Of a DNA stretch of 24,059 nucleotides, positions 1-24,059 are shown piece by piece (position 1 is the first letter of the stretch; each line of letters starts with the position of its first letter). The notes under the pieces are model-generated. The model was not told the DNA's origin. It saw nothing but the letters and a program-made list of their open reading frames with translations, and ran no database searches. Position numbers and translations under genes: made by a program. This DNA is from a virus. Lineage: Duplodnaviria > Caudoviricetes. The stretch covers positions 1-24,059 of the IMG/VR virus record IMGVR_UViG_3300017716_002518; one strand, written 5' to 3'.

Positions 1-123
1 CGTTTCAGATAACCCTGTACACCCTTGAATTGGGTTGGGTGATACCCTTTAATGGTTGACTTTACAAGGAGGTCGTGTACGTGATTGGACTGCTGGGATT
101 GTCGTATAGGCGGCGGTAGTTTA
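1..123 (+). repeat. Terminal inverted repeat, left copy
   Basis: Base-by-base comparison: 1-123 is the exact reverse complement of 23937-24059; first mismatch at 124 vs 23936. Confidence 0.99.
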
Positions 124-1381
124 CCGCGAGATAGCGGAGTGCATCGACAAAATTTGAAGTCCAGTCATGCACTGGCTTTTGTCTAAAGCAAGCGCCAAGT
201 TCATCGTACTCCCTTCTATATTCACGCATAGCTCGAATTCCCATAGAACAACTTTTGTCTACTTTTATCATTGGAAAAATAAATCTTAGCGCCTCAATTC
301 CATCATCAACACTCAGCTTTGGTGTTATTTGAAAGAACCAACCAGCCTTTCTTGCTAACATTAATCGGCTTTCTGCAAGTTCCCAATTCTGGTTTTTTTG
401 TGTTACGTCATGAGGCATCCAATGATTTCCCCAATTACATCCCCACTGTTTTCTTAGGGAGTCCGCATGATCAAGATAGAACTTTAATCCTTGACCAGAA
501 CTATGAACGCAACCAATCAAATTAATATATCTTCCTTCAAGCTGATAAAGCCAAGCAACCGTCTGGTCGCTTGCGCCCAAATCCCAACATGAGTGAAGTG
601 GAAGGTTTGGGTTTGGTTTTAACGTACCAATTCTTCCCTCTCTATCCATATCAGATGTTTCACGAGTAAAGTATGCCCCCATATTCCCGCTATCAAAACT
701 GCAATAAAATTCTTGAGCTATAAGTTCATCAGACATTCCGCGCGATTTAATATCTTTAATGTCTTCATCGGTTATTATTCTTGTTCCGTCATGCTTAAAT
801 GTTTGCTCTACAGAAAGGTGTTCAATATGGTATTTTGGATTGTCTTTGACAGCTTCATATAAATCGAATAAATGGTTTTTGCCCCTTGGGGTGCTATTAA
901 TAATTTCAATGCCTTTATTCTGAACTATTATGGGGTTTAGATATTGTCGTGCAAGTGGATGATGAAGGGAAAACTCACTGTATATAATTGTTACAGGATT
1001 AGTGCCCATGAGGCTATCTGTATTATTTGATCCAGCTAGAACTAACTTAGAGCCATTTATTAGTTCCATAGTCATTCTTGCTTCGTTTTTTTTTGCTATT
1101 AAGCACGTAGGTATTGCTGAAATAAATGGTTTTCCGTCAAAATCGAGTCCTTCCCATAAAACAGACCTAGCTTGACTATACATTGGGAAAAGATAAACAT
1201 GCGTACCAATCCTTGTTAAGGCCCTAAGCAACCATAACTGTAGGCAACAGATGTCCTTGCCAGAACGACGATGAATTATGGATAAAATATTCTTGCCTTC
1301 CTGAACGGCTTTAAACATTCGCAATTGGTGAGAATATGGATTTATATTTGGCACTTTTATATACACTAAATATTGCTCCAT
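62..1381 (-). CDS. terL: Terminase large subunit (probable true start GTG at 1366)
   Basis: PYSHQ adenine-binding motif, Walker A HRRSGKD, Walker B-like IIYSEF, coupling motif STPRGKN, AQEFYCSF, RNase H-like nuclease motifs WDLG and HDWTSNFVDALRY. GGAG lies 9 nt upstream of GTG 1366. Confidence 0.95.
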   Translation of the reverse strand: MEQYLVYIKVPNINPYSHQLRMFKAVQEGKNILSIIHRRSGKDICCLQLWLLRALTRIGTHVYLFPMYSQARSVLWEGLDFDGKPFISAIPTCLIAKKNEARMTMELINGSKLVLAGSNNTDSLMGTNPVTIIYSEFSLHHPLARQYLNPIIVQNKGIEIINSTPRGKNHLFDLYEAVKDNPKYHIEHLSVEQTFKHDGTRIITDEDIKDIKSRGMSDELIAQEFYCSFDSGNMGAYFTRETSDMDREGRIGTLKPNPNLPLHSCWDLGASDQTVAWLYQLEGRYINLIGCVHSSGQGLKFYLDHADSLRKQWGCNWGNHWMPHDVTQKNQNWELAESRLMLARKAGWFFQITPKLSVDDGIEALRFIFPMIKVDKSCSMGIRAMREYRREYDELGACFRQKPVHDWTSNFVDALRYLAVNYRRLYDNPSSPITYTTSL

Positions 1382-2046
1382 GTTTTTCTAAGCACAACAT
1401 TAGCTATCGTTGATTTATTTACTTTATAAATATCCGCTATTTTGCTATAGCTGTATTCTGGATGCATTGCACGAATCTCTAAAACTTGACTTGCATTTAA
1501 TGTTGCTTTAGCTGAATTTTGCATTTGAATTTCATACCCAACCCATCGGCAATTTTCAGGACTATAACCAAAGTCATTATTTATTCTGTCAATAGACAAT
1601 GTATCTAAATACCCATTTTTATTAGCCCAATCAAGAAAGGAATTTGTACTACCTAGCCACTGATCACAAACTTTTATTCCACGACCACCATATCGAGCGT
1701 ATCGTTGGTGATTTGTATTATTACATCGCTTTACCATATCTTTAAATATTGACCGCAATCTTTTCTGGTCTTTAAATTCTTTAAGAATTCTCCCACATAA
1801 ACACGACTCAATCTTCCTTAAATCAGTTGGTCTAGATTGAAATTCTTTATAACATTTAGGACAAATTGCTATGCAAGCTCGAAACTTTTGTTTTGCATTA
1901 GAAGAACATAAAAAACCTAAGTCTTTTATAATTTTAAATCCATTGATTTCGTCTGGTAATTTCTGTAATTTAGGCATAATTAGTATGGGATTTAATAAAA
2001 GTATAGTGTACTTTATATAGTTCCCATATGGAACTCTTAAATACAT
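1366..2046 (-). CDS. Phage HNH-like homing endonuclease with C-terminal HTH (alternative start ATG 1977)
   Basis: RC..YGGRGIKVC..W..F..WA and LSIDRINND.GYSPENCRW motifs typical of phage HNH-like proteins; N-terminal CPKC/SCLCG; C-terminal QVLEIR..YSKIADIYKVNKSTIANV HTH. Confidence 0.85.
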   Translation of the reverse strand: MYLRVPYGNYIKYTILLLNPILIMPKLQKLPDEINGFKIIKDLGFLCSSNAKQKFRACIAICPKCYKEFQSRPTDLRKIESCLCGRILKEFKDQKRLRSIFKDMVKRCNNTNHQRYARYGGRGIKVCDQWLGSTNSFLDWANKNGYLDTLSIDRINNDFGYSPENCRWVGYEIQMQNSAKATLNASQVLEIRAMHPEYSYSKIADIYKVNKSTIANVVLRKTWSNI

Positions 2047-2067
2047 TAAGAACCTTTAAGAAGTAAA

Positions 2068-2433
2068 CTATAGCTCGCAATCTAATTCGCTAACCCAAAT
2101 TTGAACACAGCCATTGGGTACTTGATTCCTGCGTATAATAGTAAGCCAGTCGATTTGACTATCGTCAACATAAATTCCGGCGTATTGCAATGAATCCAGT
2201 AGGCATTTAGTTAGATTATCAATGTCGCGTTTGCGCTTATCGGGTGGGAAAACATTAATCACTACATTAAGTCTTTTAGAAATGTCAAAGTGACCTTTAT
2301 GTTTGTGAAGCATAATAATAGCATCGCGACGATAATTCTTTCCTTTGGCTCCTAGAATTACTCCATTAGAAGTATGCAAATAGTAATGATTAATAGTAGG
2401 AGGATAAGGCAATTCTAATCGCAGCATCATCAA
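2068..2433 (-). CDS. rusA: RusA-family Holliday junction resolvase
   Basis: LPYPPTINHYY N-terminus; catalytic PDKRKRDIDNLTK..LDSL and DDSQI motifs. Confidence 0.93.
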   Translation of the reverse strand: MMMLRLELPYPPTINHYYLHTSNGVILGAKGKNYRRDAIIMLHKHKGHFDISKRLNVVINVFPPDKRKRDIDNLTKCLLDSLQYAGIYVDDSQIDWLTIIRRNQVPNGCVQIWVSELDCEL

Positions 2434-2672
2434 TTAATGTCACATATATCATTGGTTGGTAAATACAATTCTTCTTCTCCTTCGCCTTGGTCAGTATTTT
2501 TTTTATCAGCTGAAAAGTCTATATCTATACCGTTTTCCTTAAGAATTGTCTCAGCAACTTGCTCGACTGCACTGTCAACTGTTTTTGTTCCAAATTTAAA
2601 CACCAAGCCAACGGCGAAAGCACTAACAATTAATATGGCTGGAAAAATAAATTTTTTCATATTACCCTCCAT
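2430..2672 (-). CDS. Small membrane-anchored protein (probable start ATG 2660); possible lysis accessory protein
   Basis: MKK followed by one hydrophobic helix (FIFPAILIVSAFAVGLVF) and an acidic tail; GGAGG upstream of ATG 2660; ATGA overlap with rusA. Confidence 0.65.
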   Translation of the reverse strand: MEGNMKKFIFPAILIVSAFAVGLVFKFGTKTVDSAVEQVAETILKENGIDIDFSADKKNTDQGEGEEELYLPTNDICDIN

Positions 2673-2726
2673 GGTGCGGCCTTCTGCGAAAAGAAGTGGA
2701 TAAAAAACGCATTAGGCCACATAGTC

Positions 2727-2891
2727 TCAACGTTTGGTTTTTTTACCAACTTTCATCATTGCAGATTCCATACCAGTCTGTCTGATTGCATCGTAGTTAG
2801 GTTCGTACTGAATTCGGTCTTTAACAATAGTGGAAGTTGGGCAGCAAACTTTAGTTGGATTACCCTGTGGGTCTGGATTACGTTTTAGCAT
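2727..2891 (-). CDS. Hypothetical 54-aa protein (not in ORF track)
   Basis: Hand translation [60 protein letters not shown] 7 nt upstream of ATG. Confidence 0.7.
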   Translation of the reverse strand: MLKRNPDPQGNPTKVCCPTSTIVKDRIQYEPNYDAIRQTGMESAMMKVGKKTKR

Positions 2892-23161: not shown

Positions 23162-23630
23162 GTTTGATTGTTCCCAGTTTCGCTCGTTAATTATTGAGCC
23201 AGTTCTATCTAAATTGCAAGTATACTCTAAAGACGCAGAAGAGATTTTAATATTTACTTGTGCCGCAGAGTCGTTAGGAGGCCATTATCTAGTCCAAGTT
23301 AAAGGGCCTGCGGTTGGGATTTATCAGATGGAGCCAGCCACCTATACTGATATTTGGGTGAACTTTATTCGAAACCGAAATCAAATGTCAACTCTCTTGG
23401 CACTTCACTTCCAGTGCACAAGAATCCCAGATGTCGAACGCATGATTTGGGATTTGCATTTCGCAACAATCATGGCGAGAATCCATTATCTTCGGGTAAC
23501 AGAAAAACTCCCAGTCGCAGGTGATGTTGATGCCATGTGGGATTACTATAAAAAGTATTATAACACTGTAGCAGGGAAGGCCAGCAAAGAGTCTTCTATA
23601 AAGAAATACCAAGAGTTTATTAAATCTTAA
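23160..23630 (+). CDS. Lysozyme-like / lytic transglycosylase-family protein (candidate endolysin)
   Basis: Catalytic-type AAES, GPAVGIYQMEPAT, ARIHY and YYKKYYNT motifs; AAGGA RBS. Confidence 0.8.
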   Translation: MFDCSQFRSLIIEPVLSKLQVYSKDAEEILIFTCAAESLGGHYLVQVKGPAVGIYQMEPATYTDIWVNFIRNRNQMSTLLALHFQCTRIPDVERMIWDLHFATIMARIHYLRVTEKLPVAGDVDAMWDYYKKYYNTVAGKASKESSIKKYQEFIKS

Positions 23631-23850
23631 AGCAATCACGATGTCTGTGCGCGTCTGATACTACTACTTCGTGGAAGCAGATGCCGCACATCAATCCCGT
23701 TACAGCCGTCATGTGAGCCGTAACTATAGTACTTACTGCTATCCACTTGTGGTATGGCTCGAATCCTTCAGCGGCTTTAGGGCAGCGTGATGATTGGTCG
23801 TTCCATTTCTTGTGTTCGCATTCATGTTCTTTTGGTTCATCATCCGACAT
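23620..23850 (-). CDS. Hypothetical Cys/His-rich small protein (possible zinc ribbon)
   Basis: RCP...YHKW...CGICFH; GGA upstream; lies downstream of a promoter-like sequence; 3-prime overlap with the transglycosylase gene. Confidence 0.6.
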   Translation of the reverse strand: MSDDEPKEHECEHKKWNDQSSRCPKAAEGFEPYHKWIAVSTIVTAHMTAVTGLMCGICFHEVVVSDAHRHRDCFKI

Positions 23851-23874
23851 TTTATTTCCAATTATTTAAGTGTT

Positions 23875-23926
23875 GGCTCCGAAAGAGTATCCGTGGATAT
23901 CATATGCGCAAGACGTCACCGGAGCC
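23875..23926 (-). ncRNA. 52-nt stem-loop at predicted transcript start
   Basis: Closing stem GGCTCCG/CGGAGCC; inner hairpin TATC-cacg-GATA. Confidence 0.45.
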
Positions 23927-23932
23927 GTATTG

Positions 23933-23961
23933 AGTATAAACTACCGCCGCCTATACGACAA
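23933..23961 (-). promoter_or_regulatory. Sigma70-type promoter spanning the repeat boundary
   Basis: TTGTCG (23961-23956), 17 nt, TATACT (23938-23933); +1 predicted at G23926. Confidence 0.65.
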
Positions 23962-24059
23962 TCCCAGCAGTCCAATCACGTACACGACCTCCTTGTAAAG
24001 TCAACCATTAAAGGGTATCACCCAACCCAATTCAAGGGTGTACAGGGTTATCTGAAACG
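23937..24059 (-). repeat. Terminal inverted repeat, right copy
   Basis: Exact reverse complement of 1-123; contains a second copy of the last 19 terL codons and the stop. Confidence 0.99.

Follow-up and report, generated by a model that had tools for sequence, protein, structure and literature searches.

An inverted-repeat viral record as the probable late arm of a larger freshwater podovirus genome

Genes of the window

The stretch of DNA analysed here, hereafter the window, comprises 24,059 nucleotides and constitutes the entire IMG/VR record IMGVR_UViG_3300017716_002518, which is catalogued in the class 'inverted terminal repeats' (ITR) with an estimated CheckV completeness of 76%. When its 24 open reading frames (ORFs) are compared with Pfam and PHROGs, they fall to virion, packaging or lysis functions or have no known function, and the sole DNA enzymes among them are RusA, an HNH endonuclease and endonuclease VII. 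No polymerase, primase, helicase, integrase, invertase, protelomerase or repressor was found among the 24 ORFs with either collection, which bears out the impression of a virion module devoid of replication genes that had been gained from the sequence alone.

The late operon occupies the minus strand. It opens with p76 (23620..23850), a conserved gene for a 76-aa protein that lies at the same end in relatives, followed by genes for a 96-aa and a 195-aa protein (22120..23096) that are kept in all relatives compared and have only a weak HTH match (E 0.0018); by its position only, the 195-aa protein is a candidate small terminase. The head genes (17488..22103) encode the portal, a 105-aa protein, the scaffold, the major capsid protein and a 316-aa protein, with matches to PF12236 (E 4.5e-74), PF19821 (E 7e-50) and phrog_1052. 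Next come the tail tubular A-like (205 aa) and B-like (840 aa) proteins (13643..16793; phrog_394, E 2e-21, and phrog_376, E 5e-61) and internal virion proteins of 1255, 799 and 174 aa (6937..13630; phrog_342, E 4e-26), whose gene order appears to be like that of T7-type modules. Portal (PF12236), tubular proteins A and B and internal virion proteins are thus all of T7 type. Three tail-fibre genes (564, 239 and 237 aa; 3775..6913; phrog_11393) include two tandem paralogues, those of 239 and 237 aa, which form a direct repeat with 77% identity (D1). The RusA Holliday-junction resolvase (2068..2433; PF05866, E 3e-15; phrog_34, E 1e-34) and the HNH endonuclease (1366..2046; phrog_3377, E 1.3e-33) precede the last gene of the operon, terL (62..1381; phrog_2, E 3.8e-20), which encodes the large terminase subunit. 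In tblastn, TerL matches annotated large terminase subunits with up to 37% identity; searches with terL only return relatives of at most 40% identity, which are uninformative on the ends.

Two genes lie on the plus strand. One, encoding endonuclease VII (16851..17444; PF02945, E 1e-21), is sporadic like the HNH gene: among the relatives compared, the former is found in G013 only and the latter in G007 only. The other (23160..23630; phrog_3108, function unknown) reads toward the right end of the window and encodes a 156-aa candidate lytic transglycosylase. The nearest Atlas clusters of this protein include one auto-named SLT-domain protein (score 0.98), which is a lead only. A hairpin on the plus strand (23875..23926) has its 26-nt core 22 nt inward of the right-hand repeat, and this core is identical across seven records. 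It lies beside p76 in the window and after terL in G001 and G007, and was considered as the marker of a second type of inversion. This idea was rejected; the core is sporadic within the clade (three of the records examined) and is shared with unrelated phages, placing it outside the repeat system. ARAGORN and Rfam detected no tRNA and no known RNA family in the window, in its extension contig L085 or in the relative G001.

The window ends and the 924-nt repeat

In a self-comparison of the window, positions 1..123 and 23937..24059 are 100% complementary over 123 nt, exactly as the sequence-only reading had described, and the window holds no other inverted pair longer than 24 nt. The left arm (1..123) consists of the last 20 codons of terL (codons 420-439), the stop codon and 61 nt downstream; the right arm (23937..24059) repeats this stretch in inverted form and so carries a detached terL 3' fragment. 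Searched as an exact pattern against viral contigs, neither the window arm nor an early gene of L085 gave a match.

Contigs from independent assemblies pass both ends by 204-1706 nt. On the left, L085 corresponds to window positions 2375-1 and carries on for another 1706 nt, with small ORFs oriented as terL. On the right, the junction 23936/23937 is crossed by L083, a contig of another JGI assembly, which covers 733 nt of unique sequence and 327 nt of repeat at 100% identity; it runs 204 nt beyond the window end and agrees with L085 across the 327 nt. The same junction is passed by 30 nt in Logan contigs of the runs X1-X3, with no alternative branch. It is therefore not a one-off chimera, and the ends are not genome ends of the kind that had invited a contrast with the ITR genomes of phi29 and PRD1.

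Nor is 123 nt the biological length of the repeat, as had been supposed. The ITR of G001 also measures 123 nt, the unrelated circular record G005 has a direct repeat of 123 nt, and the MEGAHIT k-list, as given in a JGI data paper, runs 23,...,103,123 (PMC6646334); the length is therefore technical, an assembler k or overlap length. In the Logan graph of X1, a single contig of 23,873 nt covers window positions 94-23966 and overlaps one and the same node by 30 nt at either end. This repeat node, R, is 924 nt long in X2 and X3; its depth is 96 in X2, where the unique part has 28-34, and 65 in X3, where the unique part has 13-15. Over the Logan assemblies the node reaches 2.45-4.5x the depth of the unique part, where two copies predict 2x, a discrepancy that counts against the two-copy reading. 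Since both ends of the unique 23.8 kb enter one 924-nt node at raised depth, a real inverted repeat brackets the late genes, and the two window arms are the inner 123 nt of its terL-side copy and of its second, inverted copy.

R extends from the last 20 terL codons to the start codon of an early gene and, in the window phage, terminates directly after the ATG. A contig of a fourth run, X4, leads from terL into the repeat and breaks off where the node does, 801 nt beyond the window end; three Logan contigs halt at this one position, which probably marks the outer end of R. Shuffled sequence gives promoter-like and terminator-like matches at least as often as the repeat and the junction do. Beyond the repeat, 905 nt of the phage's own second arm were recovered. 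The window is thus a fragment of a freshwater phage genome.

Related genomes and the second arm

Related records whose portal proteins are 59-88% identical break at the same two places as the window. Of 18 portal loci, 13 are cut off 1.88-2.36 kb upstream of the gene; among 26 terL loci within the clade, 16 end within the 3' part of terL or at most 65 nt after it, and only two run on for at least 4 kb. Six longer related records reveal what lies beyond, a second arm (V) of 9-13 kb, in a layout composed of the late arm (U), the repeat, V and the inverted repeat. This layout is fully visible in G016, G017 and G015, where one full repeat copy (984, 1170 and 497 nt, respectively) stands between V and U and inverted stubs of the two repeat ends close both contig ends. 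In G012, G019 and L121, an inverted 3' fragment of terL adjoins the first late gene. An inverted repeat at the terL 3' end, which the sequence-only reading had proposed to look for, is hence a property of the relatives as well. For the window phage, the unique part has both of its ends in a single node that leads to early genes, with one outer flank seen.

V is an early arm. In G010 it encodes SSB, lambda O/P-like initiators, a Cro-like regulator and an exonuclease; its 26 ORFs, the largest of 289 aa, include no DNA polymerase of family A or B, no terminal protein and no single-subunit RNA polymerase. Relatives of 32.7-33.3 kb bring their own replication genes. By analogy, the window phage's V is probably similar in content and its full genome is predicted to measure ~33-34 kb.

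Wherever both copies of a repeat are visible within one genome they are identical, except at the inner edge in G010, where a few mismatches leave the copies exact over 99 nt and 95.7% identical over 115 nt. The repeats of different genomes, in contrast, have no blastn similarity to each other. This combination of identity within and divergence between genomes implies frequent recombination from copy to copy.

V of three short-repeat relatives (G010, G011 and L109) encodes a small serine recombinase with a catalytic N-domain and a C-terminal HTH, an invertase that matches Gin (PDB 4m6f, E 2e-29) and in which the catalytic serine is retained; G015-G019, five related records, lack it. A scan with the invertase profile for separate early-arm contigs returned only the three known records and unrelated phages, and one match, L143, bears no window proteins. 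In four of four short-repeat relatives (the same three and G001), a conserved dyad-symmetric site of 13-4-13 architecture opens the repeats near their inner border; it was looked for in the window's repeat without success. Further inverted repeats of at least 16 nt on which the invertase could act were not detected. That the dyad is a Cro operator is less likely, since the palindromes of the divergent Cro/exonuclease region in G010 differ from it and no further copy of the dyad occurs.

Orientation of the arms, alternatives and known systems

One and the same end of V adjoins terL in G010 but p76 in G011, L109 and L121, so both orientations occur among relatives; the tally of one arrangement against four compares assemblies of different phages, in which a short-read assembler may take either path through the repeat. 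In all probability, the window represents the late arm of a larger podovirus genome, and its 123-nt ITR a k-length stub of the 924-nt inverted repeat, whose copies likely recombine and flip the late arm relative to the early arm. Among the options of the sequence-only reading, a late region inverting within a larger genome is thereby the best supported: the repeat is real, the DNA continues and assemblies break there. Of the isomers postulated with it, both orientations have been recovered, albeit in different phages, while active inversion within one population can at most be presumed.

The repeat could be real and yet static: an early promoter and leader region would have been duplicated so as to flank the early arm, and rare evolutionary events or assembler path choices would account for the two arrangements seen in relatives. 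We regard this as unlikely, though worth serious consideration. It would fit the position of the V genes at the repeat edges (in G016 the first V genes of both sides begin inside the last 12 nt of the repeat, in G010 at, or at most 7 nt from, its outer ends), the end of the window's repeat directly after an ATG, the outward-facing promoter-like site within it and the occurrence of the alternative arrangement at just one of five informative junctions. However, an identical inverted repeat of 0.5-1.2 kb would be hard to hold back from crossing over in the presence of phage exonuclease and RusA, the concerted identity of the copies speaks for frequent exchange between them, and the short-repeat relatives possess an invertase and a conserved dyad with no other apparent substrate.

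In a bipartite phage, late and early arms would be two linear molecules, each ended by full-length inverted copies of the repeat. As the repeat exceeds both k and the read length, the short-read graph would be identical, and the repeat depth in X2 and X3 (3-4.5x) is nearer to the 4x expected of two molecules than to the 2x of one. Late and early arm are nevertheless linked across a repeat copy in ten contigs (L085, G010, G011, L109, G012, L121, G015, G016, G017 and G019), and in three of them the repeat crossed is at least about 100-115 nt, outer ends unseen, a distance that 150-nt reads or pairs may bridge. These contigs contradict a split genome, which we hold to be very improbable. A fold-back chimera of library or assembly, with no second repeat copy, would agree with an arm length equal to the assembler k and with a figure of the CheckV authors, by which only 33.2% of ITR contigs are more than 90% complete (PMC8116208). 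It hardly deserves credence when another JGI assembly and the Logan assemblies of three runs contain the same junction, unbranched and with a repeat depth of at least 2x, and when diverged relatives from other samples have the same topology; contig boundaries and arm length are by-products of assembly, and the suspicion of an artefact goes no further. Finally, a full virion module without replication genes, classed as ITR, could be a complete small linear element with true ITRs, either a helper-dependent satellite or a GTA-like cassette. With sequence going on past both ends, a completeness of 76%, replication genes in the 32.7-33.3 kb relatives and no relative in a portal-profile scan that covered 185,579 prokaryote species with one genome each, its probability is close to nil, and the suggestion of a GTA-like cassette is contradicted.

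Under the preferred reading of a recombining inverted repeat, each copy would carry an outward early promoter, a leader and a start codon, such that V is read inward from both ends. Recombination would keep the copies identical, and every crossover would invert U relative to V, as in plastid genomes. Flipping may proceed by homologous recombination (phage exonuclease, RusA) where the repeats are long and, in the short-repeat subclade, by the invertase at the putative dyad site. That an entire freshwater podovirus clade has a plastid-like quadripartite genome in which inversion by these two routes is part of the life cycle is a tentative and rather doubtful generalisation. Flipping one replication fork, as happens in the yeast 2-micron plasmid, might for example turn a lambda O/P-type theta into double rolling-circle replication and yield concatemers for the terminase.

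The yeast 2-micron plasmid, with two unique regions and 599-bp inverted repeats acted upon by FLP, is a quadripartite circle with recombinase-driven isomerisation, as the phage genome would be under this reading. FLP differs from the Gin-like enzyme in being a tyrosine recombinase, and a role in amplification for the phage clade is pure speculation. Among phages, most known examples of invertible DNA are small tail-fibre switches. The relatives resemble Mu G and P1 C, flipped by Gin and Cin, in encoding a Gin-like invertase near inverted repeats, but the segment enclosed here is the complete late arm of 23 kb or, seen from the other side, the early arm of 9.5 kb, and not a 3-kb switch; alternative fibre exons are absent and the dyad site is presumably unlike hix or gix. 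If two thirds of a 33-kb genome do flip, then that machinery, represented in part of the clade by a Gin-like invertase, would have been put to a new use. Plastid quadripartite genomes have large and small single-copy regions, two inverted repeats and flip-flop isomers (PMC7145664). Similarly, there are two single-copy arms here, the identical inverted copies evolve in concert, assemblies break at the repeats and both relative orientations are seen, among relatives only; the differences are a phage genome of ~33-34 kb and a repeat of 0.1-1.2 kb with a predicted promoter and leader instead of rRNA genes. A preprint describes the Burkholderia phage Matilda, a 267-kb jumbo myovirus, as having two terminal bidirectional segments flanked by long inverted repeats and found in both orientations (bioRxiv 10.64898/2026.10.21.760668), unlike the split of a small podovirus into late and early arms.

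The nearest cultured relatives, with a portal identity of only 30%, are marine podoviruses of the HTVC010P and MEP301 types, which share the T7-type portal, tubular and internal-virion module, a genome of ~34 kb and the absence of a DNA polymerase. MEP301 also has an exonuclease, an ERF protein, a 'recombinase family protein' and RusA, but no long inverted repeat was found in it, and terL precedes the portal gene instead of closing the late operon. Autographiviridae have the same T7-type structural proteins, yet neither the window nor the V of G010 encodes their single-subunit RNA polymerase or family A DNA polymerase. From protein-primed phages of the phi29 and PRD1 types the window differs in that its repeats are not at physical ends, with contigs running 204, 801 and 1706 nt beyond, and in that its 24 ORFs and the 26 of the G010 V include no family B DNA polymerase or terminal protein. 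Gene transfer agents are set apart by the lack of any chromosomal cassette in the portal-profile scan and by the replication genes of the relatives.

In an uncultured freshwater podovirus group, two inverted repeats stand between the late and the early arm. Records catalogued as 'ITR' may be fragments severed at inverted repeats inside a genome and not complete linear genomes; at least three clade records (G000, G001 and G014) are so labelled, yet only 71-76% complete according to CheckV.

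Late genes between the ends of a longer inverted repeat

The window is not a complete genome but corresponds to the late arm of a podovirus genome with a quadripartite layout. It is framed, as the sequence-only reading had claimed, by an exact 123-nt inverted repeat (positions 1-123 and 23937-24059); the second-longest inverted pair inside it measures 24 nt. The left copy consists of the last 20 codons of the terminase large subunit gene terL (439 aa; 62-1381, minus strand), the stop codon and the 61 nt that follow it. The right copy is a detached inverted version of this terL 3' stretch and joins unrelated sequence at 23936/23937. 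A promoter-like hexamer pair (9/12 matches, which is not above shuffled sequence) straddles this junction at 23933-23961 on the minus strand and is aimed into the late operon.

Pfam and PHROGs scans of 24 ORFs show that the minus strand encodes a late module of the T7 type: a 76-aa first gene (p76), a 195-aa candidate small terminase, a 96-aa protein, portal (PF12236), a 105-aa protein, scaffold, major capsid protein (PF19821), a 316-aa protein, tubular proteins A and B, three internal virion proteins, three fibre genes, several small ORFs, RusA, an HNH endonuclease and TerL, in this order. The plus strand carries endonuclease VII and a 156-aa gene whose product may be a lytic transglycosylase, a lead that comes from Atlas alone. 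These 24 ORFs yielded no polymerase, primase, helicase, integrase, invertase, protelomerase or repressor, and the earlier description of a virion module devoid of replication genes thus holds.

Within the module, terL comes last in the late operon, past RusA and HNH (62-2433), and 21 kb separate it from the candidate small terminase; ZP6 and MEP301 have it upstream of the portal gene. The HNH (1366-2046) and endonuclease VII (16851-17444) genes are sporadic, each occurring in a single one of the relatives compared (G007 and G013, respectively), a pattern expected of homing endonucleases. The fibre genes of 237 and 239 aa (3775-5209) are adjacent tandem paralogues with 77% identical 5' ends; their repeat, D1, is direct and hence not invertible.

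Seventeen public runs contain part of the window, 14 of them labelled as freshwater metagenomes, including all seven in which half or more of the sampled words are present. Logan contigs of four runs (X1-X4) were placed on window 21060-24059. In X1, a single 23,873-nt contig corresponds to window 94-23966, and since its two ends both run 30 nt into the start of one and the same assembly-graph node, the ends of the unique part continue only into that node. The node measures 924 nt in X2 and X3, i.e., the 123-nt copy plus 801 nt, and a 3187-nt contig of X4, a run that carries no flag as a possible source, leads from terL through it and stops at the same place, 801 nt past the window end. Its depth (60 for a 209-nt piece in X1, 96 in X2 and 65 in X3, versus 24.6, 28-34 and 13-15 for the unique part) amounts to 2.45x, about 3x and about 4.5x, respectively, compared to the 2x expected for two copies. 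The excess could reflect a terminal redundancy including the repeat, which would give 3x, or co-occurring strains with the same repeat.

A single search of the JGI metagenome contigs for the window's first 29 nt identified two contigs from other assemblies. L083 (1060 nt) crosses 23936/23937 at 100% identity and extends 204 nt past the right end, and L085 (4081 nt) comprises window 2375-1 and a further 1706 nt beyond the left end; over the 327 nt that both extensions share, they do not differ. The junction is therefore spanned outside the window's own record and recurs across assemblies. Direct comparison puts the repeat at 327 nt or more, and the Logan node puts it at 924 nt. Within L085 the terL 3' end is followed by about 560 nt without a convincing ORF, then by an AT-rich stretch with an outward-pointing promoter-like site (10/12 matches, not above shuffles) and a 59-aa ORF. 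The repeat ends three bases past an ATG, and beyond it lie small ORFs of 71, 88, 51 and 94 aa in the same direction as terL.

Two arms and two inverted repeats in the relatives

Searching with TerL alone returned only distant relatives, all at most 40% identical. A portal search recovered a clade: a profile built from four portal sequences matched 18 IMG/VR loci (65-88% identity), and a TerL profile (seven sequences) matched 27 loci, 26 of them in-clade. Five relatives (G001, G002, G007, G013 and G014; 22.8-23.3 kb) run collinear with the window over the whole p76-TerL stretch and have no further content. Contig ends cluster at two positions. Thirteen of the 18 portal loci terminate 1.88-2.36 kb upstream of the portal gene. 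Among the 26 terL loci, 16 terminate within the terL 3' part or at most 65 nt past it and eight do so 236-1535 nt past terL; only two go on for at least 4 kb.

Longer records include a second, early arm, V. In G010 (33,262 nt, CheckV 100%) V occupies 1-9569 and is followed by an inverted repeat at 9570-9683, ~320 nt downstream of terL, whose partner, an exact match over 99 nt, lies next to p76 at the right contig end. G011 (28,859 nt) contains 5.4 kb of V and a repeat copy just upstream of p76, with the partner copy at the far contig end, 1.4 kb past terL (exact over 106 nt). A full copy separates V from p76 in G016 (33,048 nt, CheckV 100%; copy of 984 nt), G017 (32,661 nt, CheckV 100%; 1170 nt) and G015 (35,197 nt; 497 nt), and the ends of these three contigs are inverted stubs (24-88 nt) of the inner and outer ends of that copy, as expected if the assembler crosses one inverted copy of a circular map and halts at the other. 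The RusA homologue of G016 is located in the early arm.

As in the window, the p76-side copy includes an inverted terL 3' fragment (28-105 codons) in G012, G016, G019 and the contig L121. The architecture is therefore late arm/repeat/early arm/inverted repeat, and it holds for relatives with portals as little as 59% identical. The repeats themselves are not conserved in sequence: blastn detected no similarity of the window's repeat to G001, G002, G010 and G011. In those genomes where both copies are visible, the two are identical to each other, except for a few inner-edge mismatches in G010.

The 26 ORFs of V in G010 include an SSB (PF00436), a lambda P-like helicase loader (PF06992), a replication initiator (phrog_270), a Cro-like regulator (PF14549), an exonuclease VIII-type PDDEXK protein (phrog_412) and a 189-aa serine DNA invertase (PF00239, E 4e-42; phrog_125 'DNA invertase', E 6e-63). 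The "missing" replication genes thus sit on the other arm. The invertase matches Gin of phage Mu over its whole length (PDB 4m6f; E 2e-29), catalytic serine included, and has homologues in G011 and the contig L109 (78-81% identity); none was found in G015-G019. Since the 88-aa ORF past the window's repeat has a homologue at the far end of G010's V, the window phage possesses a related early arm, whose full content is predicted from that of the relatives. These phages have no polymerase of their own and, judging from their O/P-like genes, probably recruit the host replisome in a lambda-style manner.

Probable function of the repeat and possible inversion of the arms

In G010 as well as in G016, the reading direction of V is inward from either end. 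The first V genes on the two sides in G016 begin in the last 12 nt of the repeat and have their first four codons in common, and in G010 they begin at, or at most 7 nt from, the outer ends of the repeat; such starts at the repeat edge are found on one side in G015 and on neither in G017. The repeat may therefore act as one early promoter and leader serving both ends of the early arm. In all four short-repeat relatives (G001, G010, G011 and L109), it starts with a C-rich motif followed by a dyad of two 13-nt half-sites around a 4-nt asymmetric spacer. The dyad is the best candidate for the site of the invertase, since these genomes contain no further copy, G010 and G011 have no other exact inverted repeat of at least 16 nt except one overlapping 16-nt palindrome, and the operator-like palindromes near the Cro-like gene differ from it in sequence. 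It was not found in the window's repeat.

The genome map would most likely be a ~33-34 kb circle in which inverted repeats separate the two arms. Recombination between the copies would keep them identical, and every crossover would invert the arms. For repeats of 0.5-1.2 kb this could be homologous recombination via the phage exonuclease and RusA, and for those of only about 100-115 nt the Gin-like invertase could perform the inversion. In G010 and G011, V has the same and the late arm the opposite orientation: the invertase-operon end of V adjoins terL in G010 but p76 in G011, L109 and L121, and L085, where terL is joined to the other V end, fits the G011 type. Because of these junctions, both relative orientations appear to exist in the clade (one versus four informative junctions). 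Since they come from different phages, and a short-read assembler may take either path through the repeat, they would indicate that inversion happened or that both forms exist, but do not show ongoing inversion. The initial proposal of an invertible late region is thus sustained as regards a late arm of a larger genome with inverted repeats on both sides, but not as regards ongoing inversion, opposite orientations being seen between different phages only. That inversion is frequent and not a rare event is slightly favoured.

A bipartite genome of two linear molecules would produce an identical assembly graph and would accord with the high depth of the repeat; against it, ten contigs join both arms. 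Three of these cross at least about 100-115 nt of repeat (in the part seen), which 150-nt reads or pairs may bridge. An inverted junction can also be made by a fold-back artefact; this is excluded by the recurrence of the junction across assemblies and relatives. A true ITR genome, a satellite or the GTA-like cassette considered at the outset is excluded too: the sequence goes on past both window ends, the relatives themselves have replication genes, and the late module is absent from prokaryote genomes of 185,579 species (one genome each). That the window is part of a larger genome, with a genuine inverted repeat at its borders, is likely.

The yeast 2-micron plasmid is one of the closest analogues in layout, and its phage counterparts are the G segment of Mu and the C segment of P1, both small fibre switches. 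Plastid genomes (PMC7145664) are likewise among the closest in layout. An October 2026 preprint on the jumbo phage Matilda calls inverted-repeat-flanked bidirectional segments undescribed until then (bioRxiv 10.64898/2026.10.21.760668). No small phage with inverted repeats between late and early arms was found in the open-access papers searched. The nearest cultured phages have portals at most 30% identical, and a search for a long inverted repeat in one of them, MEP301, gave none.

End labels and elements near the repeat

The window is an entire IMG/VR record of the class "inverted terminal repeats", with an estimated CheckV completeness of 76%. An exact 123-nt ITR also occurs in G001, from another sample (portal 88% identical), and an exact 123-nt direct terminal repeat in the unrelated circular record G005; G014 is likewise classed as ITR (25 nt). 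One data paper that deals with JGI-processed metagenomes gives "MEGAHIT -k-list 23, 43, 63, 83, 103, 123" (PMC6646334). Because three records have 123-nt end repeats of either polarity, this length fits a technical overlap of the final-k length and not a biological repeat length. Records G000, G001 and G014, all from this clade, are classed as ITR and hence as putatively complete, yet CheckV estimates 71-76% and they are without the early arm, which calls for caution with "ITR" labels in virus catalogues. Of the ITR contigs that have an estimate, only 33.2% attain 90% completeness according to the CheckV paper (PMC8116208).

A hairpin is located at window 23875-23926 (core 23889-23914), G001 339-364, G007 22983-23008 and L100 10001-10102. 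Its 26-nt core is 100% identical in the window and six IMG/VR records, including the complete unrelated phages G005 and G006, and the closing stems differ between records, in part through paired changes. Directly after the hairpin, G005 has a tRNA-like element without anticodon arm (weak Rfam tRNA match, E 0.027), and a similar element adjoins the right arm of G001. The hairpin may be a mobile element, a small RNA gene or an attachment site. In G012 (23377-23454; L135 10877-10954), a tRNA-like gene predicted by ARAGORN, with a four-base reading of the anticodon loop (tcgg), lies ~20 nt away from the repeat copy next to the first late genes.
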